Virus record (IMG/VR): IMGVR_UViG_3300027756_000004
Reading direction: 5' to 3' (one strand)
Origin: a virus
DNA: 64,000 bases
Shown here: piece after piece, positions 13,172 to 57,255 of the stretch
Position numbering within the stretch: the first letter of the stretch is position 1
Layout: every line of letters begins with the position of its first letter
Notes under the pieces: model-generated
What the model was told of the DNA's origin: nothing
Seen by the model: only the letters and a program-made list of their open reading frames with translations
Database searches by the model: none
Made by a program: the position numbers and the translations under genes

Positions 13172-13179
13172 TATAAATA
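13172..13179 (+). promoter_or_regulatory. Perfect T4 late promoter TATAAATA (tape measure gene)
   Basis: Exact TATAAATA match in the intergenic region. Confidence 0.75.
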
Positions 13180-25196: not shown

Positions 25197-25520
25197 ATGG
25201 CTATTAATAACGCACAAATGAGCACAGGAGCACCGGTGGAATTCACAGTATCCGCAGGGCAAAGCTGGGCATTTACCACCATAATGATTTGCAACAAAGG
25301 CAGTGGTGCTGCAACTTTTTCCGTGTATGCAGTGTTATCAGGTGAAGCAGTGTCAGATACTAAAAATAAAATTGTTAACACAGCCAGTGTTGATGCTAAC
25401 GATACCTTTGTGATGGACAGCGAAAAATTAATATTGGAGGCGGGTGACAAATTGTCATTTCAACAGATCGGTGGCACCAATGGTGACTTGCTGGTGACAG
25501 TGAGTTACATTGTAGTGTAA
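25197..25520 (+). CDS. Small virion protein (paralog family with 33881 and 47891)
   Basis: 107 aa; TTIMICN...A.F....EKLIL.AGD.L........VTVSY pattern shared with the other two. Confidence 0.7.
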   Translation: MAINNAQMSTGAPVEFTVSAGQSWAFTTIMICNKGSGAATFSVYAVLSGEAVSDTKNKIVNTASVDANDTFVMDSEKLILEAGDKLSFQQIGGTNGDLLVTVSYIVV

Positions 25521-41826: not shown

Positions 41827-44800
41827 ATGGCTGAGTTTAAATTAGGTAGGATTAGGTTTATTTGGAAGGGAGCCTGGATCACTTCAGTAACCTATTTCAT
41901 CGATGACGTAATTAGATACGGTGGTCGTACCTATATTTGTGTGGTGGGACACACCAGCGGAGTATTCCAAACAAATTTAACTGCTGGCTATTGGAACCTG
42001 ATGAGTGATGGTCAGGAATGGAAAAACGATTGGTCATTAAACACCACATACAAACCCAATGACATTGTAAAATATGGCGGATATTTGTACATTGCCAACC
42101 AAGGACACACATCAGCAGCCACCCTTGCACTAGGACTGGAAGCAGATCAAGCCAAATGGGATTTATTTTCAGAAGGATTTGATTACAAATCAGATTGGAC
42201 AGTTCTTACTAGATACAAAGTAAACGACTTAGTCAAGTATGGAGCCTACATCTACACCTGTATCACTGCACACACATCTGCTGCTAGTGCTGCATTAGGT
42301 TTAGAAAATAACATTGCCAACTGGGAAGTGTTCTCCAAAGGATTCAATTGGTTGAATGCTTGGACCGCTCTTACTAGATATAAATTAGGAGATGTGGTAA
42401 GATATGGTGGACAACTGTACACTTGTAATCTTGGTCACACTTCAAATGTATCTGCCACTACATTGGGTGGTGGACTGGAAGCAGATCAAGCCAAATGGGA
42501 TTATCTACACAAAGGTATAGAATACAAAACAGATTGGACTATCAACACCAGATACAAAATTAATGATGTGGTCAAGTGGGGACCAAGCCTTTGGATCTGT
42601 ACCACTTTCCACGTGTCTAGCGGCACCACACTCACAGCAGATCAGGCCAACTGGGCTGTGTTTGTACCAGGATTAGAATTTGAAGATTCATGGAGTTCAG
42701 CCACAAATTATCAAATAGGAGACTTTGTGACCTACGGAGGTTACGGATATGTGGCCAAGACCAACAGTATTAATAAAAATCCCAGCACTTTTGTAACTGT
42801 TGATTGGGATTTATTTGTCACAGGATTCCGTTTGATTGGAGATTACTCTGCTGGCACTGCATACAAAACTGGCGACGTAGCACGTTTGGGTGGCTTCACT
42901 TATATTTGTATTCTAGACAGCATTGGCAACAGACCACCCAATGTCACTTATTGGAGCAAACTCAATGAAGGAATCTATTGGAAAGGCAACTGGGCCAATA
43001 GCACATTGTATGACAAAGGTGATGTGGTGCGAGGTATCATCAACGCCAACAACACATACATTTGTATATTAGGACATACTTCCAACAACGTGGGACCTGC
43101 CATAATTACTCAACCTGATTATGCACCAGGAGCAGGAGTGGACACAGGCACCTACTGGCAATTATTATCAGGAGGTGCAGAAAGCTCAGCACTTACCACA
43201 CAGGGAGATTTATTATTGTATGGCCCGTCAGGTCCAACAAGATTGCCAATTGGACTTTCAGGTCAAACATTATTAGTGAATTCTGCAGGCACATTGCCTG
43301 AGTGGGGTTACTTTGGAAAAATTAACAACGTATGGTATGTGGCTCTTTCAGGTGTGGACGCACCAGCTCCAGACTATGGTGCCACATTGAATCAACCTTG
43401 GAAAACCATTCAGTATTGTCTTAAAGAGATAGACAAAGGACCGTTGTATCCTAACGCAAAAAATTTATTATTGAGAAACAAAGCATTTGTGCAAAGAGAA
43501 ACCGTGGCTTATATCAATGCCACATACACAACCACTTGTAGCAATACCACCACAAGCACTAATCTAATCACTTGTGCCAGCACTGCAAATTTAAGAGTGG
43601 GCATGAGAGTTGAATTTACTGGCACCACATTTGGTGGCATCAACATTTCAACAGAATATTATATCATAACAAAAACTTCTACTAATATCTCAGTGAGTTT
43701 GACTGCGTCAGGCTCTGCAGTCGCACTTTCAACTGCAGCAGGAACAATGACAGTGAAATTAAAATATGATCAAACCAAATGTTTGAGAGACATAGGTCAA
43801 ATTATTGACGCTGTGATTTTTGATCTAGGTCATGGTGGCAACGAAAAAAGCAGATTGGCTGCAATTTCCTACTACACTGGCAGTGGATCTTATGTGTATG
43901 GACAAGAAGTAGAAACCAGTGCTGCAATCACATTTGCCAAAACAGTGATTGATGCTGCCATATCTAATGACAACGCTTATGTAGAATTACAAGCGACTGT
44001 GCCTCAAGTGATTGACGCTACTAAAATAGAAGAACCAGAAGCATTTGGCATCATTACCACATTGATGAACATTGTGATTGATAGCATCACAGCTGGTGAC
44101 ATTGATGATGTGCCAGCAGAAAGAATTGCCAACAACACCGTATTTGTAAAAACTGGAACATTTTTTGAAGTGCTGCCCTTATATGTGCGTGAAAGCACAG
44201 CTATTGTGGGAGATGAATTAAGAAGCACCAATATCAGACCTGCACCCAGTTATGTGGACGTACAAGACGTGCCATATTCATTGACAGGCATTGATAGATT
44301 AAAAAATATAATTGATGACATCATTACCAACACAGCGATCACACCTACGCCTGCAGGTTATATTAGAGTTGTCTCAACTCCAGCATTAGATGCACTTAGA
44401 ACAGCAGGCACTTACACAGCAGTGGCTGTCACAGGTGGTGCAGGATCCAGCGCAACTTTTAACGCCACAGTAGCAGCTGGAGGAGCGATCACATCATTCA
44501 CTATTAATAATGCAGGATCAGGTTACGCCGCAGGCAACACCCTGACCATAGCCTCAGGTTTGTTGGGAGCTTCCAGTTTAGCTACCACATTCACAGTGAC
44601 CACCATAGGTGCAGGCACCGTGGCACAGGCAGGAGCACAAAATACCAACCTTCCAGCAGGATCCAACGCAGCAGCCACTTCAGCAGTGGCCATTGTGGAT
44701 GACATTTATGATTATATTGGTTACAACGTATTGGATGACAGCACCACTTATTCTAATCCTGTGATGTCAGGTTCTAATTTACCCAACACTGCAATAGGTT

Positions 44801-47800
44801 ACACAGATGCTGTGTTGAGACTGATTGAAAACAAAGAATACATAGCCACAGAAATAGTAGAATACAGTAAAAAAACCAATGCTTCCAGTGCATTCTACAC
44901 TTATTTCACAGCAGCCAATGAAGCGTCTTGCAAAAGAGATATAAGAGAATATGTGGATGCTGTATGTCATGATTTAATTTACACCGGCAATTGGAAATCA
45001 TTGATAGCTGCCAAATATTACGAAACTGCTGTGTCAGGCAGTGTCACTTCCAACATGTTCTTAATGAGAAACGGCACAGGATTAAGAAACTGCACCCTGC
45101 AAGGATTGGCAGGCACATTATCTGCGCCCAACGGCTATGGCACTCAAAGACCCACAGCAGGAGCTTATGTATCATTGGATGCAGGTTGGGGACCAGCACA
45201 TGAAGATATGTGGATCACTAACAAATCACCCTATGTGCAAAACGTATCCACATTCGGCTCAGGTTGCGTGGGATTAAAAGTGGATGGTGCATTACACAAC
45301 GGTGGAAACGATTCCGTAGTGGCCAACGACTTTACACAAATTTTATCAGACGGTATTGGATTCTGGGTGACCAACTTGGGCAGATCAGAATTAGTATCAG
45401 TGTTTTCATATTACAATCACATTGGCTATTTGGCTGAAAATGGCGGAAAAGTAAGAGCCACCAATGGTAACAATTCTTATGGTAAATTCGGATCAGTGTC
45501 TGAAGGTGGAGATGTCACTGAAACACCAATCACTTGTACTGTGGACAACAAGAGCACAGACGCTACCATAGGTAATACTTTCACAGATGGTAATAGAATA
45601 TTAGCAATGGAATACACCAATGCTGGTACCAACTACACCACAGCAGCAGTGCATACAATATCTGGAGATGGATTTGGCATCACAGGCACCACTGCTACCA
45701 TACGCAATGGTGGTGTGTATGAAATAAGATTGAATGAAACTGTCACATCACCTGAAAGCAACTATGGTGGTGACGGATACAGTTCTTCTGCCAACGTGGC
45801 ACAGAACGGCACAGACAAAACTGTAACAATTTCCAACACTGACACAGCATTGGCTGCTGAGTTAACAGGTTTAGCCATATGGTTGATTTCAGGATTAGGT
45901 GCAGGGCAATATGCATACATTGTGGGATTCAATGCAGGTTCAAAAGCTACCAAAGTGGCCAGACCTTCATTCCCCAGCATGACAGTCACAGCTGCCACTG
46001 CTTCCAATGATAGATTCACCACTGCCAGCACCAGCAACTTAGATTTGAACATGCCTTTGATGTTCAGTGGCACAGCATTTGGCGGAGTAACCACCACAGC
46101 CACCAACCCAACCATTTATTATGTGAAAACTATTTCTTCAGCCACACAATTCACCATCAGCACCACACCAGGTGGCACTGCGTTTGATATCACAGCAGAT
46201 GCCGCAGGCACCATGTATGTACACAAGGCAGGATGGGATCATTTGGTGAACACCACTTGTACCAACACCACAGTAACCACAGATGTAATCACTTGTGCAT
46301 CCACTTCAGCATTGTACGTGGGCGCAGCAGTGCAGTTTGATGGACCAACATTTGGTGGCATCAGCACATACACTCAATACTATGTGAAAGCTGTTTCCTC
46401 TGCCACACAATTCACCATCAGTACCACCTTAGGTGGTGCAGCAGTCACACTTTCAACTGCTTCAGGCACCATGAGTGTGAGAGTAGTGGAAGCTACATTG
46501 GATGGCACTACCCAATATGAATATGTGCCGCGCATCATAGTGAGCGCTCCTGCATCAGGAGTCACGACAATTGCGAGAGCAGTGGTCACCACTGAAAAAA
46601 TATCATCTATAAGAATTATTGAGCCAGGATCAGGACACGTAACCACTCCCACAGTGACCATTGTGGATCCCAGCAACACTGTGGAAGCACCAGTGCAAGT
46701 GTTCTATGGAGATGGCGCTTTGGGTCAACCAACATTTACCAACCGAGGAACAGCCTACCTCACAGCAATAACCACTGTGACAGAAACAGGAGTGGTACGC
46801 ACTGTGAACGGCATCACCAACGCTAATCCAGGTGTGGTGACCACCAGTGCTGCTCATGGTTACGCAGATGGAACCAAAGTTATTTTTGCCAATGTGGCAG
46901 GTATATTCCAAATCAATAGTGGCACATGGTTTTACACTAAATCACTCACTGGAACCACATTCCAATTGTATGTGGATGAGGCTTTAACTGTGGGATTGAA
47001 TACCACCAGCTTTGGCACGTACATAGCTTCAGCAGGCACAGTGACAGCATTTGGTGGATTTAGAAACAGTTTACAAAGCGGCAGTTTCATTCAAGTGCAA
47101 GGATTAACACAAATTCCTCAAGCAGGTTCCAATGTGGAGTTTGCATCCATCGCAGGCGAATGGTACAAATTGGTTACTGTGCAAAATCTTTTAGGCACAC
47201 AATATCCATTCACAGCATTGTTACAAGTGAGTCCACAAATAGGAGTAGGAGAAGCTCCACCACATGGAACTGTTATCACAATTAAAATTAGATATTCACA
47301 AATTAGATTGACTGGTCATGATTTCTTAGACATTGGCACTGGTGGTTTTGTTTCAACCAATTATCCTGGCATACCTTTACAAGCAGCTAATGGTGACAAC
47401 GAAACTGTGGAGAATGGTGGAGGCAGAGTATTTTTTACCAGCACAGATCAAGATGGTAATTTTAGAGTAGGTGATTTATTCTCCGTGGAACAAAGCACAG
47501 GTATTGCCACATTGAATGCAGATGCATTCAACATTTCAGGATTACAAGAACTTCAGTTGGGTGAATTAGTATTGGGAGGCACCAGTGCTTCCATCAACGA
47601 ATTCTCCACAGACGGTACAATGGCAGCTGACAGTGACCAAATCGTGCCCACTCAGAGAGCGATTAGAACATATATATCTAGTCAGATCGGTGGTGGAGCC
47701 AGCAGTTTGAATGTGAACCAGATTACTGCAGGTTTGATCACAATATTCAGCAATACCATTGAGACCACCACTGGAGTGACAATAAACTTTGATTCCCCTG

Positions 47801-47862
47801 TGAATTTCACAAAAGGGATAAAAGGAACACCCGTAGCATTGGGGTATTTCTTACAAGGATAA
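41827..47862 (+). CDS. Giant virion structural protein (2011 aa) with CBM5/12-like repeats and beta-helix
   Basis: MAEFKLGRIRF.WKG.W N-terminus and YSQIRLTGHDFLDIGTG..GGRVFFTSTDQDGNFRVG C-terminus shared with 36415; ATAAATA at 41795-41801. Confidence 0.8.
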   Translation: MAEFKLGRIRFIWKGAWITSVTYFIDDVIRYGGRTYICVVGHTSGVFQTNLTAGYWNLMSDGQEWKNDWSLNTTYKPNDIVKYGGYLYIANQGHTSAATLALGLEADQAKWDLFSEGFDYKSDWTVLTRYKVNDLVKYGAYIYTCITAHTSAASAALGLENNIANWEVFSKGFNWLNAWTALTRYKLGDVVRYGGQLYTCNLGHTSNVSATTLGGGLEADQAKWDYLHKGIEYKTDWTINTRYKINDVVKWGPSLWICTTFHVSSGTTLTADQANWAVFVPGLEFEDSWSSATNYQIGDFVTYGGYGYVAKTNSINKNPSTFVTVDWDLFVTGFRLIGDYSAGTAYKTGDVARLGGFTYICILDSIGNRPPNVTYWSKLNEGIYWKGNWANSTLYDKGDVVRGIINANNTYICILGHTSNNVGPAIITQPDYAPGAGVDTGTYWQLLSGGAESSALTTQGDLLLYGPSGPTRLPIGLSGQTLLVNSAGTLPEWGYFGKINNVWYVALSGVDAPAPDYGATLNQPWKTIQYCLKEIDKGPLYPNAKNLLLRNKAFVQRETVAYINATYTTTCSNTTTSTNLITCASTANLRVGMRVEFTGTTFGGINISTEYYIITKTSTNISVSLTASGSAVALSTAAGTMTVKLKYDQTKCLRDIGQIIDAVIFDLGHGGNEKSRLAAISYYTGSGSYVYGQEVETSAAITFAKTVIDAAISNDNAYVELQATVPQVIDATKIEEPEAFGIITTLMNIVIDSITAGDIDDVPAERIANNTVFVKTGTFFEVLPLYVRESTAIVGDELRSTNIRPAPSYVDVQDVPYSLTGIDRLKNIIDDIITNTAITPTPAGYIRVVSTPALDALRTAGTYTAVAVTGGAGSSATFNATVAAGGAITSFTINNAGSGYAAGNTLTIASGLLGASSLATTFTVTTIGAGTVAQAGAQNTNLPAGSNAAATSAVAIVDDIYDYIGYNVLDDSTTYSNPVMSGSNLPNTAIGYTDAVLRLIENKEYIATEIVEYSKKTNASSAFYTYFTAANEASCKRDIREYVDAVCHDLIYTGNWKSLIAAKYYETAVSGSVTSNMFLMRNGTGLRNCTLQGLAGTLSAPNGYGTQRPTAGAYVSLDAGWGPAHEDMWITNKSPYVQNVSTFGSGCVGLKVDGALHNGGNDSVVANDFTQILSDGIGFWVTNLGRSELVSVFSYYNHIGYLAENGGKVRATNGNNSYGKFGSVSEGGDVTETPITCTVDNKSTDATIGNTFTDGNRILAMEYTNAGTNYTTAAVHTISGDGFGITGTTATIRNGGVYEIRLNETVTSPESNYGGDGYSSSANVAQNGTDKTVTISNTDTALAAELTGLAIWLISGLGAGQYAYIVGFNAGSKATKVARPSFPSMTVTAATASNDRFTTASTSNLDLNMPLMFSGTAFGGVTTTATNPTIYYVKTISSATQFTISTTPGGTAFDITADAAGTMYVHKAGWDHLVNTTCTNTTVTTDVITCASTSALYVGAAVQFDGPTFGGISTYTQYYVKAVSSATQFTISTTLGGAAVTLSTASGTMSVRVVEATLDGTTQYEYVPRIIVSAPASGVTTIARAVVTTEKISSIRIIEPGSGHVTTPTVTIVDPSNTVEAPVQVFYGDGALGQPTFTNRGTAYLTAITTVTETGVVRTVNGITNANPGVVTTSAAHGYADGTKVIFANVAGIFQINSGTWFYTKSLTGTTFQLYVDEALTVGLNTTSFGTYIASAGTVTAFGGFRNSLQSGSFIQVQGLTQIPQAGSNVEFASIAGEWYKLVTVQNLLGTQYPFTALLQVSPQIGVGEAPPHGTVITIKIRYSQIRLTGHDFLDIGTGGFVSTNYPGIPLQAANGDNETVENGGGRVFFTSTDQDGNFRVGDLFSVEQSTGIATLNADAFNISGLQELQLGELVLGGTSASINEFSTDGTMAADSDQIVPTQRAIRTYISSQIGGGASSLNVNQITAGLITIFSNTIETTTGVTINFDSPVNFTKGIKGTPVALGYFLQG

Positions 47863-47890: not shown

Positions 47891-48217
47891 ATGGCAACAG
47901 GAAGATTGGGAGCAGCGAACTTAGGAGCTGCTGCTTTGAACACAGTGTACCTTTGTCCAGCTGATACGTTTGCAGTGGTTGCTGTGAACTTCCTAAATCG
48001 AGGCAATCAGGCTCAGACCTTTAGATTGGCTGTGGCTACGACAGACACACCAAACGCAAACGGATCTGAATGGATTGAGTACGATGTGGAAGTGCTATCC
48101 AAAGGAGTGCTGGAAAGAACCGGCTTAGTTTTGGCAGCATCACAGAGATTAGTGGCATACGCATCAGGGGGCAACGCTAGTGTGGTGGTTTACGGCATTG
48201 AAACATCAACGCTGTAA
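47891..48217 (+). CDS. Small virion protein (paralog family)
   Basis: MATGRLG..., VY.CP, V.VN..NR, IEYD..., LERTGLVL, VVVYGIE; AGGAG RBS. Confidence 0.7.
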   Translation: MATGRLGAANLGAAALNTVYLCPADTFAVVAVNFLNRGNQAQTFRLAVATTDTPNANGSEWIEYDVEVLSKGVLERTGLVLAASQRLVAYASGGNASVVVYGIETSTL

Positions 48218-48263: not shown

Positions 48264-48596
48264 ATGGGAAGATACATATCAACAACCGGAACCGCTGGCA
48301 TAGTGATCAGAGAAGTTACGACCACTTATCAAGCAGTGGTAAATGATAGAATTTTAGCAAACAGCTCAGCTGGTGCTTTTACTATCACTTTGCCTCTGAA
48401 TGCAAGTTTGTTGAACAATGACACCATTCAAATCATAGATGTTGGCAGTGCTGCAGGCACCAACAACATCACCGTGGCTAGAAATGGTTCATTAATCAAC
48501 GGTGCAGCTGATAATTTAACAATTGACTTGAATCAAGCAATTGTGACTTTGATCTACACAGGGGTTACTAACGGTTGGATTGTGGGCGCAGTATAA
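48264..48596 (+). CDS. Short fibre-module protein (T4 proximal-fibre repeat-like)
   Basis: NSSAGAFTITLP......DTIQIID......NNITVARNG..ING...NL.ID......LIY.....GW repeat unit; ATAAATA at 48234-48240. Confidence 0.7.
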   Translation: MGRYISTTGTAGIVIREVTTTYQAVVNDRILANSSAGAFTITLPLNASLLNNDTIQIIDVGSAAGTNNITVARNGSLINGAADNLTIDLNQAIVTLIYTGVTNGWIVGAV

Positions 48597-48647: not shown

Positions 48648-49631
48648 ATGGCAAGTTTAAAAACACTCACTGCAACTAAGAGATCTGACTTTCCACAGGT
48701 CACCGAAACCAATGTGGAAGCTGGACAAATCTTTCACTTTTCCATGGGAGCCAACTTTGAAGTTTTCAACAATGGTATCTGTTTCAAACCCTGTCAATCA
48801 GGCACAGCCATAATTGAATTGTGGGGAGCTGGAGGATCAGCTGCTCAAATGTGTTGTTGCGGATTTGGTCTGCCAGGCAATCCAGGTGCTTATGCACGCA
48901 AAACTGTAGTTTTATCATGCTGTGGATACATCTCTGGACAAGTAGGAAATTCATGTGGCAATTCAAGCGCACTGTGTTTTAGAGGATGTGGAGATGCCAC
49001 AGGCGTAACTTATTATCCCATTGGCACAGGTGCAGGACAAGGTTGTGTGTGTGCTCAGGGTGGTAGAGGTGGAATTTCTTATTGCAGCACAGGCACCAAT
49101 GCCTATTGCTGTTTTTTATCAGGCGCATTTTATAGCAGTATAGGTTTAGATGGCAACTGCGGCATTGTGTGCAACAAATGCTGTTCAGGTGGATGGTGTG
49201 CTCAGTCCTACGGTGGAGATTTAAATTGTCCAGGTGGATTCAGTTGTGTGAGTTTCCTTGGAGCATCAGGCAGTTCATGTCCTTGTCAATCAAATGTTCA
49301 CGTGCAAGGTCCTGCAGGATATTTTTCCAAATGCGGAGTAGTGGTATCTTACAATTCAGATGACGGCAATGGTTTTGCCAACTGGTCAGGTCAAGGCAGA
49401 GGTCAGTATGCTCAAGCATTGGCAGCTGCCAGCAGATGGCCACAAATGGGAGCTCAAATGGCCACTTGTTGGGGATTTTCAGGCAATTGTGGTTGTTATG
49501 AAAATGAAGGATGTCAACATCTATTACCGCCAGGATTTCCTGGGGGAATACCACACCCATGCCCAGGCGTGAGAGATCACGCACAGCGAGGTGGTATGGG
49601 AGCAATCAGAATTAAATGGATAGCAGGATAA
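48648..49631 (+). CDS. Cys/Gly-rich putative fibre-tip protein 1
   Basis: ~30 Cys in 327 aa (manual count); IELWGAGG...MCCCG.GLPGNPGAY and C-terminal GG.G.IRI.W glycine-rich-domain motifs. Confidence 0.75.
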   Translation: MASLKTLTATKRSDFPQVTETNVEAGQIFHFSMGANFEVFNNGICFKPCQSGTAIIELWGAGGSAAQMCCCGFGLPGNPGAYARKTVVLSCCGYISGQVGNSCGNSSALCFRGCGDATGVTYYPIGTGAGQGCVCAQGGRGGISYCSTGTNAYCCFLSGAFYSSIGLDGNCGIVCNKCCSGGWCAQSYGGDLNCPGGFSCVSFLGASGSSCPCQSNVHVQGPAGYFSKCGVVVSYNSDDGNGFANWSGQGRGQYAQALAAASRWPQMGAQMATCWGFSGNCGCYENEGCQHLLPPGFPGGIPHPCPGVRDHAQRGGMGAIRIKWIAG

Positions 49632-49635
49632 TCAT

Positions 49636-50634
49636 ATGCCAACACTGAGATCATTGATAGAAACTAAATTAGCATTCCAGTTGCAAGGATTGGAATCAAA
49701 CGTAGAAGAAGGCAGAATTTGGGCTTATTCTCCCGGCACAGCAGTGGGCACTAACTTTCATTGCGGTGTGTGTTGGATATCACCAGGCACAGGCACAGCT
49801 ACCATAGAGATATGGGGAGCAGGTGGATCTGGAGCAAAAATGTGTTGCTGCGGATTTGGTCTGCCAGGCAATCCAGGTGCTTACTCCAGTAGAACTGTCA
49901 GTGTGACAGTGGGCTGCTGCATCAGAGGTCAAACAGGAATAAGCTGTGGTAACTCAGACGATTTATGCTACAGAGGCAGATCTGAAAGCACGGGTATCTG
50001 CTGGCAAGGCAACGGCACCAACGGATGTATGTGTGCAGAAGGTGGTCAAGGTGGATACAGCTATTGTTCTACCACTCCATCAGCCTATTGCTGCTTTGGA
50101 GCCAACGGATTTTGCAACACAAAAACAGCAGGTGAAAACTGCGGAATTATTTGTAACTACAGAGGCGCGGGCTGTGCCATTCACCAAGCTCAATCATACG
50201 GCGGCACTTGCAACATGGCAGGTGGATTCAGCTGTGTGAGTTTCTTTGGATGTTTGCCCACATGTCCTTGTGCATTCTGGTATCACATGAGAACTCCACC
50301 CAAAATGTATGCAGACTGTGGAGCATGGGTCACATACACCAACGATGTGGACAATGGAGCCTATAACTGGAGCGGTGGATCATTGTATGGTTATATTCAC
50401 ACTTTAGGATTGGTTTCTAGAAATCCAACACATGGTGGAAACTATTCAGCCTGTTGGACTGGAAATAGATATTGCGGTTGCTACAACATGAACGGTTGCA
50501 TAGCGTTTGTGCCTCCTGGTCATGGTGGACCACCACCACATCCATGTCCAGATGTGAGAGATCATGCCTACCGAGGTGGTCATGGTATAATTAGAATTAA
50601 ATACGTGGGAACAGGATATTTGGGGTTAAACTAA
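49636..50634 (+). CDS. Cys/Gly-rich putative fibre-tip protein 2
   Basis: ~30 Cys in 332 aa; colinear paralog of 48648 and 50634. Confidence 0.75.
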   Translation: MPTLRSLIETKLAFQLQGLESNVEEGRIWAYSPGTAVGTNFHCGVCWISPGTGTATIEIWGAGGSGAKMCCCGFGLPGNPGAYSSRTVSVTVGCCIRGQTGISCGNSDDLCYRGRSESTGICWQGNGTNGCMCAEGGQGGYSYCSTTPSAYCCFGANGFCNTKTAGENCGIICNYRGAGCAIHQAQSYGGTCNMAGGFSCVSFFGCLPTCPCAFWYHMRTPPKMYADCGAWVTYTNDVDNGAYNWSGGSLYGYIHTLGLVSRNPTHGGNYSACWTGNRYCGCYNMNGCIAFVPPGHGGPPPHPCPDVRDHAYRGGHGIIRIKYVGTGYLGLN

Positions 50635-51596
50635 TGCCAGGATTAAAAAGTATATTAGCAAGTAGAGTCAGTTACGAAGTGGTTGAAACCAACCTAGAAC
50701 AAGGTGTGATTTATGCCTTTTCACCCGGCACATTCTACACACAATACTGCAACGGCTTCTGTTGGAAGCCACCAGCTGCAGGTTGTGCCATTGTGGAGCT
50801 TTGGGGCGCAGGTGGATCTGGATCTCGTATGTGTTGTTGTGGTGGAGGACTGCCCGGCAATGCAGGCGCTTACGCTAGAAAAAGTATTGAAGTGGACACT
50901 GCCAACTTTGTGTGTGGCTGTGTGGGTTTCCCTCGCTACGCACACGATTTATGTTTTTCAGGTTGTGGTGATCCCAGCACAATATGTTGGACTAGCACCA
51001 CTGCCAACGGTTGTTTGTGTAGTAGAGGTGGCCGAGGTGGCACCAGTTTTTGCAGCACCAGCACCAGCATGTGGTGTTGTTTTTATGCCAATGGATTTTG
51101 CGGATTTGGACCCATCAATGACCACTGCGGTATTTTGTGCAATCATTGTGCAGGAGGTTGGGAAGCACTGGCCTATGGCGGTGACATCAACTGTTGCGGC
51201 ACCATTGGATGTTCAACTTTCCTAGGTTGTTATCCCACTTGTCCTTGTCAAACCATTCACCATGCGCCTCTGCCAGCTTACATGTTTGCAGAAAAAGGTG
51301 CTAGAGTGAGTTTTCAAACCAATGATGGTGGTATACACAATAGTGGTATGTCAGGCAGTCAGTTGCCCAGTTATTTTGGAGCGTTGGCAGGAGTCAACAA
51401 ACAGCCCACCAGAGGATCTTTCAACAGCTATTGCTGGAGATCAGACAGATCCTGCGGCTGTTATGAAATGCAAGGCTGTTCAGCTTACTTGCCTATTGGA
51501 GCAGGTGGACTGCCTCCACAACCATGTCCAGATGTGAGAGATCACGGAATCAGAGGCGGCTGGGGCGGCATGCGTATCAGATTTATTGCTTCTTAA
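50634..51596 (+). CDS. Cys/Gly-rich putative fibre-tip protein 3
   Basis: ~31 Cys in 320 aa; same MCCCG, C.C..GG.GG.S.CS, CPC, CGCY...GC, PCP.VRDH motifs. Confidence 0.75.
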   Translation: MPGLKSILASRVSYEVVETNLEQGVIYAFSPGTFYTQYCNGFCWKPPAAGCAIVELWGAGGSGSRMCCCGGGLPGNAGAYARKSIEVDTANFVCGCVGFPRYAHDLCFSGCGDPSTICWTSTTANGCLCSRGGRGGTSFCSTSTSMWCCFYANGFCGFGPINDHCGILCNHCAGGWEALAYGGDINCCGTIGCSTFLGCYPTCPCQTIHHAPLPAYMFAEKGARVSFQTNDGGIHNSGMSGSQLPSYFGALAGVNKQPTRGSFNSYCWRSDRSCGCYEMQGCSAYLPIGAGGLPPQPCPDVRDHGIRGGWGGMRIRFIAS

Positions 51597-51641
51597 TGAT
51601 ATATGTTGATAAATACACTAAATAGTAACAAGGAATAAAAT

Positions 51642-52295
51642 ATGATAACAAAAAATTTTACAATACCTTTGGCAGATGAACCCTATGTGGACACCACTGC
51701 ACTCAATAACACATATGCAGCCACTTATAAAGGTCCAAAATATATAAAAGTTGCCATTGACAGCACAAGTAAAGTTGTTGAAAGAGTAGTATCATCAGCT
51801 GACACCATGGCTGAACTTGATCAAATGTTCACACCTACAGAAGCCAATCATACCTATCATGTGATGGATGCATCAACGCACACTTTTGAAGCAGCATATC
51901 TCACTGGCATGTATGACACAGGTCCTGTAGAAAATTACACAGAAACTTTACCTACCAGAAATGCCGCGGGTGAATTTGAAACTTTTACTTATGGTTGGGA
52001 TGACAACACAGGCATGATTCAACAACAATATTTTATTTTAGATATGAAATATGAAAACGGTAATTTTGTAAGACCTAGATTTAGAGTACATGCATTAACC
52101 AGAGCGAGTTTCTTAGCATCAATGCAAGTGCAAATTGCCTCTATCACCACAGCTTTAGAAAGCAATCAAGAATTGACAGATGAAGCAAGAGGCCAATTAG
52201 AGACCTATAAAACTTGGTTAGAAAATCTTCCAGTAAAGTATGCAAACGTAAAACATTGGAAAATTCCATTCGTTTTGCCAGTACCAACATACTAA
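51642..52295 (+). CDS. Tail fibre assembly chaperone-like protein
   Basis: Follows the fibre-tip genes; C-terminal L.TYK.WL.NLP..Y......KIPF..P.P resembles the Tfa-type 'W..YRQ.LRDLP' motif; ATAAATA at 51609-51615. Confidence 0.55.
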   Translation: MITKNFTIPLADEPYVDTTALNNTYAATYKGPKYIKVAIDSTSKVVERVVSSADTMAELDQMFTPTEANHTYHVMDASTHTFEAAYLTGMYDTGPVENYTETLPTRNAAGEFETFTYGWDDNTGMIQQQYFILDMKYENGNFVRPRFRVHALTRASFLASMQVQIASITTALESNQELTDEARGQLETYKTWLENLPVKYANVKHWKIPFVLPVPTY

Positions 52296-52364
52296 ATCAA
52301 GAATAATTCATCCATACATATACGTTGATATATAATAACGTGTGTAAGCTCACACCATTTATAT

Positions 52365-53309
52365 ATGAATAGATCCAAAGCATTTTTCCTCAATGGTGGC
52401 ATAGGTAGAATCCTATGTGCTATTCCTGCATTAGAAAAATATGCAGAAGAATCATCAGATAAAGATTTTTTGGTAATCTGTGAAGGTGCAGTGGACATAC
52501 TAAAAGGCCATCCTTTGCTGGATAAAAAAACTTACGATATATTTCATAAAAATTTATTTCATTCCAAACTGCAGAGTAAAGATGTGGTGAGTTTAGAACC
52601 ATACAGAGTATGGGAATACTATAATCAAAAATGTAATCTATCACAAGCCTTTGACATCTTGATCAACAACAAAGGAGTGCGATCTTTGCCCAAACCCACA
52701 GTGGTGCTCAGCAAAGAAGAAATTGCACAAGGACAAAAAGTAATAGATGAGATCAAAACTAAAATTAAAAAAGAAAAAACAATTGTTTTTCAACCATTTG
52801 GTAGAGGCGTAGAACACATTGATAAAACTATTATAGATAAAACAGGACGCAGTCTTGAATACAAAGATGTAAAAAAACTTATCGGGAAGTTGCAAAAAGA
52901 AGGTTTTGCAGTAATACTGATGTCTGAGTTTGGATTGGAACTTAAGAATCAAAACTACACAGATGAAGTTGCTATGCCTGAAGGGTTAAATCTTAGACAG
53001 TGGACTTCAGTAATCAAACATGCAGATCATTTCTTTGGATGTGACAGTGTAGGACAACATTTAGCATATATTGTTGGCACTCCTAGCACAGTGGTGTTGG
53101 GTCCTACATATCCCATCAACACCAGTTATCCCGAATGTGAATATTTTAATATCATGGACATGGGAGAGGTAGACCGAGAATATGATCCTATTAGAATTAC
53201 TATGGATGAAAGAATCTCTCGTAAAAACGAGATCCTCATGTCCATGAATGAAGAAATAGAAGATTATGCAATCAATACTATCATGGGAAGAAACAAAGAT
53301 GACAAGTAA
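52365..53309 (+). CDS. GT-B glycosyltransferase, GT9 (heptosyltransferase)-like #1
   Basis: NGGIGR.LCAIPAL, IVFQPFG, LRQW..VIK.AD.F.GCDSVGQHLA..VG.PS.VV.GPT match GT9 'GGIGD', 'QP.' and 'DSG..HLA.A.G.P.V..FGPT' motifs. Confidence 0.75.
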   Translation: MNRSKAFFLNGGIGRILCAIPALEKYAEESSDKDFLVICEGAVDILKGHPLLDKKTYDIFHKNLFHSKLQSKDVVSLEPYRVWEYYNQKCNLSQAFDILINNKGVRSLPKPTVVLSKEEIAQGQKVIDEIKTKIKKEKTIVFQPFGRGVEHIDKTIIDKTGRSLEYKDVKKLIGKLQKEGFAVILMSEFGLELKNQNYTDEVAMPEGLNLRQWTSVIKHADHFFGCDSVGQHLAYIVGTPSTVVLGPTYPINTSYPECEYFNIMDMGEVDREYDPIRITMDERISRKNEILMSMNEEIEDYAINTIMGRNKDDK

Positions 53310-55110
53310 AACATCAGGATACATTGCTGCCATAGCACGTGGTCACAATAGCGGAGTGTGTCTATTAAAAGATGGCAAGGTAGTTTTTTCTATTGAGGAA
53401 GAAAGATTAAGCAGAGCAAAATACGATGGAGGTCCTTTTGCATCCATGGTTGAAATATTGAAATATACTGATAAGATAGATTATCTTGTGGTCGCACACA
53501 CTCAAAAAATTAAAGACACAGCAGGTCGTATTGATTTCACCGGAGATGACGTGTACACTGGATTAGCAAGAAAATTAGGGTTAATAAATCGTCAAGCAGA
53601 TGTGATGAATCATCCCCAAGTGGTTGATCTAAGTCATGTGCATCACAAACTACATGCTGCTTGTGCTTTTTATAGATCAGGTTGGGACAGTGCAGTCAGC
53701 GTAATAGTAGATGGAGCTGGCACTTTCCTTGGCATAAACAATAGTTTGCAAGGTCCGATTACTGTGTGGGAAGTTGAATCTATTATAGATTGTGCGTATC
53801 CAGCTAAATTTAAATCATTGTACAAACACTATGGTACTAGAGAACCAGTGCTAGGTTGCGTGCTGAAAAATTTTCCTTCAGAGATTACAGATGAATCTGG
53901 TCAAACTCATGAAGCAGTGTTCAGCGATCGAGCTGGCATTGTGAAAGTGTATGAAGCAGTTACACAATATTGTGGATTTATGCCTATTGAGGCTGGAAAA
54001 ACAATGGGATTGTTTCCTTATGGTAAACCCAATCATAAAATTCCTAAATTATTTGAAACTGATTCTTTAGTAGAACTATCAAATAGAAATTTGATATTAC
54101 CCACCTATCCTAACGCTGCTTTAGTGAACTCACAATTATTTGATTTTTTAGAGGATCCTACAGGAGTGCAGCAAGAAGATGTAACCAAGTTAGAAAACCG
54201 TAGAGACTTAGCCTATGCTTGTCAGTTAGAAACTCAAGCTCAAGTTTTAAAATTAATTCGCAAGGCAGTAGCAATGACTAATAATAAAAAAGTAGTGCTA
54301 TCAGGAGGCTATGGATTGAATTGTGTAGCAAATTACTATTATTTAGAACATCTAAGAAAAGACGGAGTTGAATTGTATGTTGAACCCATATCTAATGATG
54401 CTGGTACAGCAATGGGAGCAGCATTACTGTTTTATCATCAAATATTTGCAGACAAGACTCCTAAAGTTCATGATACATTGTATCTAGGTCCCGATAAAGA
54501 ATATAGTATTACAGATATTGAAAGCACAATCAAAACTAATCCTAAAATTTTTATGAGTGAAGCCACACACAAAGATATTGTAAAGCTCTTAAGAGCTAAA
54601 AATATTGTAGCAATATTTCAAGGCAAATCTGAAAACGGTCCAAGAGCATTGGGTAACAGATCCATTTTGTTTGATCCAACATTCAAGGATGGCAAAGATT
54701 TTGTTAATATTATAAAAAAGAGAGAATACTTTAGACCATTTGCTGGCACAGTGTTACAAGATGATGTGCATGATTGGTTTGATTTGCGTGGTATGAAAGA
54801 TTCTCCATTTATGATGTATGCTGTAAATTGCCAACCAGGAGTGGCTGAAAAAATTCCTTCAATTATCCATGTGGATGGTACTTGTAGAATACAAACCGTC
54901 ACAGAAAAACAGAATAAACATTACTATGATCTTATAAAACAATTTAAAGAAGAAACAGGTATACCTATATTGTTCAATACTTCATTTAATTTAGGAGGAG
55001 AGCCTTTGGTAGAAAGTTTTGATGATGCGATTAGAACATTAGAAAATTCTAAAATTGAATATCTATATCTTCCTGAACACGGCAAGCTAATTCACATAGC
55101 AAACAACTAA
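53299..55110 (+). CDS. Carbamoyltransferase, NodU/CmcH/TobZ family
   Basis: GHNSGVCLL.DG.....EEERLSR.KYDG, HHKLHA..AFY.S, VDGAG, EAGKTMGL.PYG, LSGGYGLNCVAN, DAGTAMGAA, E.GPRALGNRSIL, KKREYFRPFA, HVDGTCRIQTV, NTSFNLGGEPLV; start set at ATG 53299. Confidence 0.95.
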   Translation: MTSKTSGYIAAIARGHNSGVCLLKDGKVVFSIEEERLSRAKYDGGPFASMVEILKYTDKIDYLVVAHTQKIKDTAGRIDFTGDDVYTGLARKLGLINRQADVMNHPQVVDLSHVHHKLHAACAFYRSGWDSAVSVIVDGAGTFLGINNSLQGPITVWEVESIIDCAYPAKFKSLYKHYGTREPVLGCVLKNFPSEITDESGQTHEAVFSDRAGIVKVYEAVTQYCGFMPIEAGKTMGLFPYGKPNHKIPKLFETDSLVELSNRNLILPTYPNAALVNSQLFDFLEDPTGVQQEDVTKLENRRDLAYACQLETQAQVLKLIRKAVAMTNNKKVVLSGGYGLNCVANYYYLEHLRKDGVELYVEPISNDAGTAMGAALLFYHQIFADKTPKVHDTLYLGPDKEYSITDIESTIKTNPKIFMSEATHKDIVKLLRAKNIVAIFQGKSENGPRALGNRSILFDPTFKDGKDFVNIIKKREYFRPFAGTVLQDDVHDWFDLRGMKDSPFMMYAVNCQPGVAEKIPSIIHVDGTCRIQTVTEKQNKHYYDLIKQFKEETGIPILFNTSFNLGGEPLVESFDDAIRTLENSKIEYLYLPEHGKLIHIANN

Positions 55111-55111
55111 T

Positions 55112-56062
55112 ATGAACAAAGCATTTTTTATAAATGGTGGAGCTGGAAGAACTCTATGTTCAGTGTCAGCATTAGAGAATTATGCCATAGATAACCCCAA
55201 TGACGATTTTATTATTGTGTGTGAAGGCGGCACAGATTTTTACAAAGGGCATCCTAAACTGCATTTCAGATCCTATGATGTATGGCATAAAAATTTATTC
55301 AATGAATATCTAAAAGATAGACAATTAATTACACCTGAACCTTACAGAATTTGGGAATATTACAATCAAAAATGTAGTATAGCTCAAGCATATGATATAG
55401 AAATTAATAACAAAGGCATAAGAAAGTTAGAAATTCCTAAAATATTTTTGTCTAAAGAAGAATTAATCATGGCTAGACAGATGATTAATGAAGTGAAAGA
55501 AAAAACTAAAAAAGAAAAAGTAATTGTGTTCCAACCTTTTGGACGTGTATCTAAAAAAGATAACGAGGACTTTGTAGATGTTAGTGGTAGAAGTTTTGAG
55601 ATAGAAAATACCATGAGTTTAATAAGACAATTGGGCAAACAGTATGGCATTATATTGATGTCTGAATACGCAATTGATTTTGCCAAATATCAAATTAATT
55701 TTCCTATCGCCGCTCCTCAACAAGTGCATGTAAGGGTATGGAGTGCAGTGATCAAAATGTGTGATCATTTTTTAGGTTGTGACAGCTTGGGTCAACATAT
55801 AGCAAATGCATTTGACAAGACTGCCACAGTAGTATTTGGATCAACTTTTCCAGAAAACGTATCATACCCTGCCAACAACAAATTTGATATCATCGACATG
55901 AATAAAGACAATAGAATTTATAGTCCTATACGTATTACCATGGATGAATACGCAGATCGAGCCAATGAAGATGCTATGAAGATGGATAAAGAAGTAGAAA
56001 ACAGAATAGTACAATCTGTTCAAAGCATGATCAAACATGGTCAAAAGAAGATTAAAAAATAA
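55112..56062 (+). CDS. GT-B glycosyltransferase, GT9-like #2 (paralog of 52365)
   Basis: Colinear with 52365: AFFINGGAGR, EPYRIWEYYNQKC, FQPFGR, GCDSLGQHIA, Y.PIRITMDE. Confidence 0.75.
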   Translation: MNKAFFINGGAGRTLCSVSALENYAIDNPNDDFIIVCEGGTDFYKGHPKLHFRSYDVWHKNLFNEYLKDRQLITPEPYRIWEYYNQKCSIAQAYDIEINNKGIRKLEIPKIFLSKEELIMARQMINEVKEKTKKEKVIVFQPFGRVSKKDNEDFVDVSGRSFEIENTMSLIRQLGKQYGIILMSEYAIDFAKYQINFPIAAPQQVHVRVWSAVIKMCDHFLGCDSLGQHIANAFDKTATVVFGSTFPENVSYPANNKFDIIDMNKDNRIYSPIRITMDEYADRANEDAMKMDKEVENRIVQSVQSMIKHGQKKIKK

Positions 56063-56086: not shown

Positions 56087-56503
56087 ATGTTCAATGTAAA
56101 CAACTTGTTTGGCAAGGGCGTAAAAAACACTTTACTGTTAAAAAACGGTTTGAATTTTTCAGTGGGAGGACCATTCATAAGCATCCAAACAGACACTTTA
56201 ATAGATAGATGGCAATTCACATCTGTGTCAGCTGCTGAATATACTCTAATGGTAGACTATGATACCAACAACAAAGAAATTATAAGATGTTTACTGGTAG
56301 GTGGGCCAAATGCTGCCACTGTGACCATATACGGTCGTGGCAATCTTGGTAATGAACTAATCAATCTCACAGCCACAGTGAATGACTCATATGTGGAACT
56401 GAAAGCCACCCCAGCACAAGGCGCCGACAGCACTGTATACAGTGGTTCCAAATGCATATTTCAAGCCACGTATTTTGAAACTTTGAATCCTATCACACGC
56501 TAA
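56087..56503 (+). CDS. Hypothetical virion protein
   Basis: 138 aa; ID.W......AEY...V......E....L........T.YG beta-sandwich pattern; GTAAATA 5 nt before ATG. Confidence 0.65.
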   Translation: MFNVNNLFGKGVKNTLLLKNGLNFSVGGPFISIQTDTLIDRWQFTSVSAAEYTLMVDYDTNNKEIIRCLLVGGPNAATVTIYGRGNLGNELINLTATVNDSYVELKATPAQGADSTVYSGSKCIFQATYFETLNPITR

Positions 56504-56547: not shown

Positions 56548-57255
56548 ATGCCAGTAGTCAATAATCCATTAAAGTCGTTGTATGGCTTTCAAAGCCCTTC
56601 ATTCAGTGTGAATGCTGCTGGTAATCTTGTGGCTGTTGATGTCACTGTGAACAACATCACAGCCAACGATATTACGGCCGATGATATCACAATCGATCAA
56701 GCAAGCACCACAACATTGTTAGTGGGCGCTGCTACCAATTTACTGGGTACTCTTGCAGTGGCAGGAGTATCGACTTTTACAAACACCACTGCTGCGCAAA
56801 GTTTAAACATTGCTGCTGTAAAGATAGCAGGAGGAGTAGCCATTCAAAATAATTTGTTGGTCAACGCTAATAGCACATTCAACAATGACTTGACCATAGG
56901 TGAAGATTTAACAGTGCAAAACAATATTCAGGTCAATGATTCATTGATCACTGATCGCATCACTACCATTAACGATGGCAGCACATTGACAGATTTATTG
57001 ATCCAACCTGTGAGAAACGTTATTTTTAAAACTGCTGGTAATAACACAGAATTAGGCAGAATAGATGCCACAGGATCTACTGTGCCGGTGAAAAATACCA
57101 GTATCAACAACACCAGTATAGGACTCACAGTGGCCAGCACTGCTGCATTCGTAAGCGGCACCGTGGTCAACACTCCTACAGCAGCCAATAATATCACTAG
57201 AAAAGACTATGTGGATCGTACAGCCGTGGCTTTCTCCGTGGCTTTAGGGGGATAG
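56548..57255 (+). CDS. Fibre-like virion protein
   Basis: Beta-stranded Thr/Asn-rich repeats; PT....ITRKDYVD...A.SVALG C-terminus; ATAAATA at 56522-56528. Confidence 0.65.
   Translation: MPVVNNPLKSLYGFQSPSFSVNAAGNLVAVDVTVNNITANDITADDITIDQASTTTLLVGAATNLLGTLAVAGVSTFTNTTAAQSLNIAAVKIAGGVAIQNNLLVNANSTFNNDLTIGEDLTVQNNIQVNDSLITDRITTINDGSTLTDLLIQPVRNVIFKTAGNNTELGRIDATGSTVPVKNTSINNTSIGLTVASTAAFVSGTVVNTPTAANNITRKDYVDRTAVAFSVALGG

Follow-up and report, generated by a model that had tools for sequence, protein, structure and literature searches.

The closest described counterpart of the fibre-tip module treated here is found in the freshwater cyanophage Pam3, whose fibre protein gp24 requires the downstream chaperone gp25, in which a beta domain at the N-terminus is followed by a helical one at the C-terminus, in order to fold (PMC9608196). 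The module in question occupies positions 48,648 to 56,062 of a 64,000-nucleotide viral sequence (IMG/VR record IMGVR_UViG_3300027756_000004; "the window" refers throughout to this whole stretch). In it, three genes for cysteine-rich (Cys-rich) proteins, C1, C2 and C3, are followed by a gene for a candidate chaperone, p217, and by an enzyme cassette in which two glycosyltransferases (GTs; GTa and GTb) flank a carbamoyltransferase (CT). Of this Pam3 pair (7ypx, 7yfw), gp24 has its fold in common with the model of C1, and p217 resembles gp25 in position and architecture. However, C1–C3 carry about 30 cysteines per chain, whereas one disulfide-forming cysteine (Cys28) is described for gp24, which has not been called Cys-rich; three distinct paralogues stand here in place of a gp24 homotrimer, and an N-terminus of about 25 residues in place of the long helical docking domain of gp24. 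In addition, p217 has no detectable similarity to Pam3 gp25, and sugar enzymes adjacent to the Pam3 genes have not been reported. The gp38 adhesin of Salmonella phage S16 and other T-even phages (PMC9608196, PMC9942802) is likewise a small, separately encoded, glycine-rich protein that caps a long fibre shaft in a T4-like myovirus, but it has another middle domain, is not Cys-rich and is the product of a single gene; S16 gp38 was also absent from the matches returned by the fold search with C1.

The enzymes have a different set of relatives. Like the lipopolysaccharide (LPS) heptosyltransferases WaaC, WaaF and WaaQ (CAZy family GT9), the phage GTs possess a donor domain with a D-S/T...H segment, and heptose-nucleotide genes lie nearby in cultured relatives; unlike them, they have a dissimilar N-terminal domain, an invariant Arg at the position of Asp13, and a location within a virion module. 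Virus-directed glycosylation of virions has a precedent in the chloroviruses. The same kind of precedent is provided by mycobacteriophages, in which virus-encoded GTs lie beside structural genes and the virion is decorated in the cytoplasm; the GT families, sugars and targets (capsid and tail tube) are others and a carbamoyltransferase does not take part, and decoration is demonstrated there but inferred here (PMC10568470). TibC and AAH offer an analogy only: an ADP-heptose-using, WaaC-like GT-B enzyme glycosylates an adhesin in the cytoplasm (PMC4358343), but the N-terminal beta-barrel, beta-hairpin thumb and four-cysteine iron finger of these enzymes are not present in the phage GT, which gives no sequence match to them and belongs to a different family. 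Finally, the same GT (T4-GC 302) and CT (T4-GC 303), followed by heptose genes, form part of the cyanomyovirus "LPS gene" clusters of P-SSM2 and S-SSM7, which were taken either for LPS genes resembling those of the host, with a use not known, or for stuffer DNA, with no remark on a pairing with Cys-rich fibre tips (PMC3037559). What is new here is that the tips, the GT and the CT are strictly paired, and that the GT has an altered acceptor side.

The window covers the morphogenesis region of a T4-like myovirus, and its source is an uncultured freshwater T4-like (Kyanoviridae-type) myovirus. The best blastn identities are 64–75%, exclusively to cyanomyoviruses and exclusively over the enzyme genes, and a megablast search with 24 kb against phage records gave no match and hence no close cultured relative; public sequencing runs from 2017 to 2025 place the phage in lakes and further freshwater sites. 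A model-made annotation of the bare sequence (the original prediction) had described three colinear proteins of 320–332 residues, embedded among structural genes and possibly metal-loaded or decorated with carbamoylated glycans by the adjacent enzymes. The open reading frames (ORFs) are exactly as it stated, and the embedding is equally real, with fibre proteins of 2011 and 2146 residues on the flanks and baseplate wedge genes upstream.

The tips and the enzymes travel together. A Cys-rich profile retrieved 80 loci from IMG/VR, and every locus of sufficient length displayed the same order: p108, p110, three Cys-rich genes, one or two copies of p217, GT, CT, an optional second GT, p138 and p235 (for the small and fibre-like proteins named here by their length, see Table 1). 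Near relatives have the arrangement GT-CT-GT, and more distant relatives and cultured phages GT-CT. Across these loci the identity of the Cys-rich proteins drops to 45–50%, while that of the CT is still 66–70%. The apparent exceptions are loci in which one Cys-rich gene is located in the baseplate module; two such genes and the GT remain in place in both of the contigs (2/2) that reach the fibre module. A corresponding order is present in the cultured phages S-SSM7, P-SSM2, S-CAM3, S-CAM1 and Sf-FS3, although their Cys-rich proteins are only 21–29% identical to those of the window. Whole-genome profile searches of 16 cultured genomes for GT and Cys-rich genes gave a clear division. All five GT-bearing genomes, namely the five just listed, have two or three Cys-rich genes directly upstream of the GT, and none of ten genomes that lack the GT contains a clear Cys-rich gene (S-SSM5, ACG-2014d, P-SSM7, HTVC008M, S-SCSM1, Bellamy, P-RSM4, S-WAM1, S-CAM9 and S-SM2). 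S-RIM44, also devoid of the GT, gave one weak, partial match (KX349294.1 103570-103851, E = 7e-4, profile positions 39–139) in a 260-residue ORF, which may be a Cys-poor glycine-rich tip. S-SM2 carries heptose genes (PMC3037559) and the profile search found neither GT nor Cys-rich tips in it, so the specific partner of the tips is the GT-CT pair and not the heptose pathway. The original prediction had named synteny and co-occurrence as the check to be made. All related phages examined keep the enzymes in synteny with the Cys-rich genes, so that the loss of synteny that would have told against the prediction is not seen.

C1–C3 contain 9–10% cysteine, compared with 0.65% in the other plus-strand ORFs of at least 200 residues in the window, and 16–18% glycine. 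Because 15 cysteine columns are invariant and five more nearly so in an alignment of 45 homologues, this enrichment is real and selected; both the counts per chain (Table 1) and the conserved columns bear out the cysteine content that had been predicted. The motifs WGAGGSG, GxGxPGNxGAY, GGxGG and GGxGxxRI are also invariant or nearly so among the 45 homologues and are common to the S-SSM7, P-SSM2 and S-CAM3 proteins. None of the three proteins matches a Pfam family, even at an E value of 10, and in PHROGs they match only phrog_4205, of unknown function. A tblastn search of phage records with C1 returned nothing, probably owing to low-complexity masking and divergence. The AlphaFold2 model of C1, computed from the 45-sequence alignment (predicted local distance difference test, pLDDT, 76; predicted template modelling score, pTM, 0.77), was more informative: it matches the Pam3 fibre (7ypx_A; Z 15.1 over 192 residues at 2.9 Å), the tail tip of mycobacteriophage Bxb1 (9d93_Qa; Z 12.0) and the glycine-rich domains of ALK/LTK (Z 7.8–8.8), with the next, unrelated chain at only Z 4.3, and Foldseek concurs (E 1.6e-5 to 1e-4, probability 1.00). 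According to this model, C1–C3 are very probably fibre tips that combine a tumour necrosis factor (TNF)-like and a glycine-rich fold. The earlier assignment to a receptor-binding tip is thereby strengthened, as the matched fold is that of known receptor-binding fibre tips.

The model also bears on how the tips are attached. About 25 residues precede the beta domain of C1, with one short helix (residues 4–8) and pLDDT values below 50 for residues 1–24, and a long N-terminal alpha-helical docking domain of the Pam3 gp24 type is absent from the model, so that C1–C3 more probably cap a separate shaft. The protein encoded directly upstream, p110, shares 34% identity over 90 residues with SSSM7_113, a tail fibre protein of S-SSM7, at the end of its C-terminal part, and because this similarity concerns the extreme C-terminus, p110 is likely to represent the distal end of the fibre shaft, where the tips attach. 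A maximum-likelihood tree that includes nine related loci groups their first genes with C1, their second genes with C2 and their third genes with C3, in three separate clades (supports of 99/97, 97/92 and 91/95), and one second-position gene falls just outside the C2 clade. The cultured phages have triplets of their own, S-SSM7 grouping with Sf-FS3 and S-CAM1 with S-CAM3, and P-SSM2 has a pair. That three different TNF-like subunits keep recurring together would suit a heterotrimeric or hetero-oligomeric tip. In a subgroup of the relatives, one tip gene has been relocated to the baseplate module, where it stands behind a 166-residue homologue of the protein encoded at 25520-27085 of the window. 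This baseplate-module protein has 521 residues in the window, and only its N-terminal ~166 residues are common with the short protein (L056-L059, L063 and L065); the association of the 166-residue protein with a Cys-rich gene looks as though distal binding modules had been swapped, module by module, on an adaptor that the phages share.

By analogy with Pam3, most of the cysteines in C1–C3 are most likely disulfide staples across the glycine lattice; the Pam3 virion contains disulfides in its fibre and baseplate, and they are needed for its integrity (PMC9942802). Cysteines are present at both columns 162 and 206 in 223 sequences, at only one of them in 12 and at neither in 35, and variable cysteine columns tend to be gained or lost in pairs, although these counts are inflated by shared ancestry. 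The original prediction had started from the premise that so many cysteines imply metals or modification, which ignores that the virion lives in oxic water, and metal loading has found no support, stapling by disulfides being the simpler account. Binding of metal or Fe-S clusters in place of disulfides would agree with the invariant CCC, CxC and CPC motifs, with the odd number of cysteines in 46% of the homologues and with the synthesis of these proteins in a reducing cytoplasm. We nevertheless consider it improbable, since the fold is an extracellular glycine lattice, the Pam3 fibre and baseplate use disulfides (PMC9942802), the variable columns (162 and 206) come and go pairwise, and Pfam contains no metal-binding family that matches C1–C3.

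The gene that follows the tips, p217, was modelled by AlphaFold2 with a pLDDT of 95 as an N-terminal beta/alpha domain, whose strands extend to about residue 143, followed by a hairpin of C-terminal helices (154–174 and 180–199); a C-terminal HWKIPF motif is conserved among the homologues. These homologues always adjoin Cys-rich genes. The P-SSM2 homologue has one Cys-rich gene on either side, and this placement, together with the duplicate copies in some loci, ties p217 to the tips and not to the enzymes. The duplicates are tandem p217-like genes, 29–34% identical to p217, that stand between the tips and the GT in many relatives (L013-L015, L019-L024, L031, L036, L038, L042-L047, L051 and L053). 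Fold matches in BFVD were to the S-CAM1 and P-SSM2 counterparts (E 1e-11 to 1e-8), followed by weak matches to proteins that carry the name of a tail fibre assembly protein or of a chaperone (E 5e-3 to 0.2, template modelling score at most 0.25). No Pfam family matched p217, even at an E value of 10, and searches of the Protein Data Bank (PDB) by sequence, profile and Foldseek found no clear match; the VIA list was filled by generic helical hairpins (Z of 7 or less) and barely probed the N-terminal domain. A dedicated chaperone is a reasonable inference from the position of p217 and the architecture of its model, but the "Tfa-like chaperone" of the original prediction is a weaker label than it was given as, with weak fold matches and no clear match to Tfa.

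GTa and GTb are 47% identical and, judged by the following comparisons, are GT9-derived glycosyltransferases; where two paralogous GT-B enzymes had been predicted, the paralogy holds and the likeness is to GT9. In Pfam, where the GT9 entry (PF01075) has a cut-off of 22 bits, GTa scores 22 and GTb 18 bits; half of the family members (9 of 18) match the entry, the best with an E value of 6.5e-7. Aligned by hhalign to E. coli WaaF, WaaC, WaaQ and WaaU, the phage family matches with a probability of 92% (E 6.3e-7) over 124 columns, all in the C-terminal donor-binding domain, while the N-terminal acceptor half has no detectable similarity to the LPS heptosyltransferases. Residues D227 and H232 of the D-S/T...H segment are invariant in a joint alignment with the E. 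coli enzymes. MAFFT places the G14-R15 pair, invariant in the phage family, on the G-D motif (Asp13) of the four E. coli enzymes, an assignment of Arg15 to the Asp13 column that is tentative because the N-terminal half lies outside the hhalign match. In WaaC, Asp13 is the catalytic base. The equivalent residue of TibC, Asp110, was named by superposition on WaaC (PMC4358343). Since the donor side of GT9 has been kept and the acceptor side re-made, the phage GT should not be counted as an ordinary LPS heptosyltransferase, and a different acceptor fits with homology to the E. coli heptosyltransferases that is limited to the donor-binding domain.

GTb occurs in near relatives only; distant relatives and all of the cultured phages carry one GT, and GTb is, on this distribution, a lineage-specific duplicate. 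In public metagenomes the family comprises 3,876 sequence clusters, on contigs of up to 365 kb, many of them automatically named ADP-heptose:LPS heptosyltransferase. PDB sequence searches with a single GT or a profile gave nothing useful, and a search of the ESM Atlas with GTa matched only its own viral clusters. Within the 314 residues of the GT, C90 and C226 are the only cysteines invariant in the family. Distant homologues (26–28% identity) are encoded by Aeromonas phage HJ05 (L099 7004-7927) and Vibrio phage K479 (L100 6887-7738), unrelated phages of 79 kb in which the GT gene is wedged between those of giant virion or tail proteins. Cys-rich tip genes are absent from HJ05 and K479, and no carbamoyltransferase is annotated in the flanking stretches examined.

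The CT is unambiguously, by its sequence matches, an O-carbamoyltransferase of the NodU/CmcH/TobZ type. Both domains are recognised by Pfam (Carbam_trans_N, 90 bits against a cut-off of 24, 2.7e-25; Carbam_trans_C, 196 bits against a cut-off of 27, 3.9e-58), the match to phrog_1601 reaches 6.7e-169, and the solved carbamoyltransferases 7xb6, 9s2t (novobiocin pathway), TobZ and GdmN are matched with E values of 1e-41 to 9e-56 (9e-56 for 7xb6, 1e-43 for TobZ). The segment HHKLHAACAF...DGAG of the CT aligns with HHRAHLACGR...NDGQA of 7xb6, corresponding to the Kae1-type HxxxH and DG motifs, which presumably contain the metal-binding residues. These matches to both domains and to solved enzymes agree with the full-length NodU/CmcH carbamoyltransferase that had been predicted between the two GTs. 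The product of the cassette is probably a carbamoylated sugar.

As to the sugar, heptose is our best guess from gene content. The genes located 3' of the CT in all five cultured carriers encode a heptose kinase/adenylyltransferase, a phosphoheptose isomerase, a cupin and a nucleotide-sugar epimerase, and heptose is the probable sugar because heptose-nucleotide genes adjoin the cassette in these relatives. Two large related contigs encode a homologue of the heptose kinase 3–6 kb downstream, and a third contig has one at another site. The S-CAM3 phosphoheptose isomerase, a short query in a search that had no positive control, found no match in five related contigs. The 118-residue cupin, annotated as "cysteine dioxygenase" (L083 16225-16581, with counterparts in P-SSM2, S-CAM1 and S-SSM7), always has the phosphoheptose isomerase on one side and the nucleotide-sugar epimerase on the other, and a sugar-nucleotide enzyme is a likelier identity for it than a cysteine dioxygenase. 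S-SSM7 and Sf-FS3 additionally have a gene for a 2-oxoglutarate (2OG)-Fe(II) oxygenase of the prolyl-4-hydroxylase type between the p217-like gene and the GT (Table 1), and more copies among the heptose genes; it is a potential further protein-modifying enzyme beside Gly/Pro-rich tips.

Regulatory signals and transcript data give a picture of how the module may be expressed. The heptamer ATAAATA occurs nine times on the plus strand of the window, always in intergenic sequence (9% of the window is non-coding) and 26–271 nt upstream of structural genes, and is probably the core of the late promoter of the phage, to go by its placement. The full T4 box, TATAAATA, was set aside as the late-promoter motif because it has a single plus-strand copy, at 13172; the phage probably relies on the shorter ATAAATA, copies of which stand on both sides of the block. 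The region is present, at an identity of at least 95%, in the assemblies of four lake metatranscriptomes. RNA contigs begin at 51641–51643 in two runs, long ones run through C2, C3 and p217, and contigs end at 52289–52314 in all four metatranscriptomes (4/4) and restart at 52349 in two of them (2/4), although such contigs define neither transcript ends nor levels and may reflect carry-over of DNA. With a hairpin in the gap between p217 and GTa (Table 1), the interval 52289-52364 gives a weak hint of an attenuator or of a promoter belonging to the cassette, and the contigs hint that the enzyme genes receive weaker read-through transcription or have a promoter of their own. A TATAAT hexamer is located at 52331-52336, near the hairpin; in a scan for sigma-70 promoters, sites were no more numerous than in shuffled sequence. 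The G+C content is 0.33–0.36 over the cassette and 0.43–0.49 in the neighbouring genes, with a slight difference at third codon positions (GC3). We rejected this dip as proof of recent transfer, because the gap in GC3 is small and much of the overall contrast follows from amino-acid composition.

We propose that C1, C2 and C3, with p217 as a folding or assembly factor, would form a hetero-oligomeric cap at the end of a shaft made by p110 and the 2011-residue protein, and that their cysteines would turn into disulfide staples once the virion is in oxic water. The cassette would transfer a sugar, probably heptose, and then O-carbamoylate it, the glycosylation taking place in the cytoplasm late in infection, on an acceptor that the phage would itself specify, the best candidate being the fibre tip or another fibre protein close by. 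The strict linkage of tips and enzymes suggests that the enzymes decorate the virion. A virion acceptor is also favoured by the position of the cassette in a late structural array and by the re-made acceptor half of the GT, and the Vibrio and Aeromonas GT homologues are likewise encoded between giant virion proteins. Protein heptosylation has a precedent in TibC, a WaaC-like GT-B enzyme (PMC4358343), and phage-encoded virion glycosylation in mycobacteriophages (Freeman et al. 2023, cited in PMC10568470). We hold the whole chain, virion acceptor included, only tentatively, the identity of the acceptor being its weakest step. More doubtful still, though possible, is the broader claim that the "LPS genes" of aquatic T4-like phages serve virion tailoring and give rise, through O-glycosylation by the GT and subsequent carbamoylation by the NodU-type enzyme, to a heptosylated, carbamoylated, disulfide-stapled heterotrimeric receptor-binding tip or to a fibre so modified.

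Several observations weigh against this proposal. Structural modules are syntenic in any case, so part of the synteny within this conserved one is linkage by descent; moreover, the five cultured carriers are perhaps not phylogenetically independent. There is no ATAAATA ahead of GTa, which leaves the cassette without a late-promoter motif of its own, and the depth of the RNA contigs is several-fold lower over the enzyme genes, with a break between p217 and GTa. The chemistry of the GT may differ from that of GT9, because an Arg replaces the catalytic Asp. The donor sugar is uncertain as well, since a related genome that is rated 100% complete and has the cassette (G006) contains no homologue of the heptose kinase and S-SM2 has heptose genes without the cassette. 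PDB searches found no significant similarity of p217 to solved Tfa or gp25 structures, and the odd cysteine counts mean that some cysteines of the tips are free, linked between chains or ligand-binding.

The cassette could instead act on the host, masking the receptor by placing carbamoylated heptose on the envelope glycan (LPS core, O-antigen or other) that the tips recognise, which would block superinfection or keep progeny from being lost to cell debris. An inner-core cluster of Pseudomonas aeruginosa offers a parallel, with two heptosyltransferases and a carbamoyltransferase that modifies heptose II. GT9 enzymes and the closest sequence relatives of the GT act on LPS, the adjoining heptose-nucleotide genes would serve this purpose too, and the cyanophage genes have indeed been read as "LPS genes" (PMC3037559). 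Linkage to receptor-binding genes is equally expected here, through co-evolution around one receptor. Yet the N-terminal half of the GT has no detectable similarity to LPS heptosyltransferases and has no Asp at the catalytic position, a late structural array comes late for the remodelling of an existing envelope, and the Vibrio and Aeromonas GT homologues reside in virion modules with no other LPS genes nearby. The LPS of marine Synechococcus is not known to contain heptose or 3-deoxy-D-manno-oct-2-ulosonic acid (Kdo), and the classical acceptor may therefore be missing. Receptor masking is a possibility that we take seriously but find rather doubtful.

Decoration of the virion must also be set against readings in which the tips and the cassette have nothing to do with each other's function or in which the target is DNA. 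The GT-CT pair might be an auxiliary or moron island, for example for exopolysaccharide or small-molecule tailoring, that occupies a variable slot of the fibre module by chance and is co-inherited with the tips by descent. Its low G+C content, the GT copy number that differs between lineages, the RNA contigs that suggest a separate and weaker transcription unit, and the scattering of other carbamoyltransferases across cyanophage genome positions all speak for such an island. We think it unlikely, however, because the block is kept across at least five genera despite a divergence of the Cys-rich proteins beyond recognition by BLAST (21–29%), the co-occurrence is 5/5 against 0/10, and the G+C gap arises largely from the richness of the neighbours in Gly, Cys, Thr and Ala, with only a slight gap in GC3. 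Hypermodification of DNA, with the cassette acting on hydroxymethylated pyrimidines, is very unlikely. The T4 glucosyltransferases do have a GT-B fold, and the carbamoyltransferases of S-RIM44 and S-SCSM1 adjoin thymidylate synthase genes. A phage enzyme of the NodU family carbamoylates 5-hydroxymethylcytosine in DNA (PMC8670742). But the DNA-modifying clade co-occurs with thymidylate-synthase homologues, whereas the carbamoyltransferases of unmodified contigs are flanked by glycosyltransferases (PMC8670742), and the flanks here are GT9-like and fibre genes, with heptose-nucleotide genes in the cultured relatives; moreover, the thymidylate-synthase-linked carbamoyltransferases are only 36–37% identical to the CT and occur in the absence of the GT.

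If the fibre is decorated, host recognition would depend on a post-translational glycan and not on the protein sequence alone, host-range prediction from fibre genes would change in a very abundant group of aquatic phages, and the cyanophage "LPS genes" would be reassigned. Virion tailoring, if true, would be the first instance in the T4 superfamily of a receptor-binding protein that bears a glycan, and the first in any virus of protein heptosylation and carbamoylation. If receptor masking is true, the module would instead link a receptor binder with a receptor modifier in lytic phages. The strict pairing offers a concrete test system in five cultured cyanophage-host pairs, and the Cys-packed glycine lattice is in itself an unusual protein architecture.

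Table 1. Features of the fibre-tip and enzyme module, its neighbours and its regulatory motifs. Positions refer to the window unless another locus is named.
Feature	Position	Strand	Description
ATAAATA sites	13173, 17138, 23485, 27103, 30014, 41795, 48234, 51609, 56522	+	
2011-aa protein	41827..47862	+	Giant fibre/virion protein; heads the fibre module; ATAAATA 32 nt upstream
p108	47891..48217	+	Small conserved protein; always ahead of the tips; found in 75 related ORF sets
p110	48264..48596	+	Small conserved protein; directly 5' of the Cys-rich genes; ATAAATA 30 nt upstream
C1	48648-49631	+	Very probable Cys-rich TNF-like plus glycine-rich fibre tip; 327 aa, 30 Cys, 18% Gly; phrog_4205
C2	49636-50634	+	C1 paralogue; 332 aa, 30 Cys; 48% identical to C1
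C3	50634-51596	+	C1 paralogue; 320 aa, 31 Cys; 45% identical to C1
ATAAATA ahead of p217	51609..51615	+	Motif of T4 late-promoter type; 33 nt ahead of p217
p217	51642-52295	+	Probable fibre-tip assembly factor; 217 aa, zero Cys
Hairpin GTGTGTAAGCTCACAC	52340..52355	+	In the 69-nt p217-GTa gap; from a terminator scan
GTa	52365-53309	+	GT9-derived glycosyltransferase; phrog_8954
CT	53266-55110	+	NodU/CmcH/TobZ-type O-carbamoyltransferase; 614 aa
GTb	55112-56062	+	Second GT9-derived paralogue; 1-nt gap after CT
p138	56087..56503	+	Small conserved protein closing the module; after the enzyme cassette in 58 related ORF sets
p235	56548..57255	+	Fibre-like protein; structural genes resume; conserved after p138; ATAAATA 26 nt upstream
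2OG-Fe(II) oxygenase, S-SSM7	L001 11311-11970		SSSM7_119
2OG-Fe(II) oxygenase, Sf-FS3	L092 8305-8937		

The genes around the module are conserved with it. Large homologues of the 2011-residue protein precede the module in all related loci, p108 is 51% identical to PSSM2_302 of P-SSM2, and p138 has no family match in Pfam or PHROGs. Within the cassette, the longest ORF of the CT overlaps the end of GTa by 44 nt (53266-53309); an alternative start at Met12 (53299) would reduce the overlap to 11 nt and agrees with the starts of the homologues.

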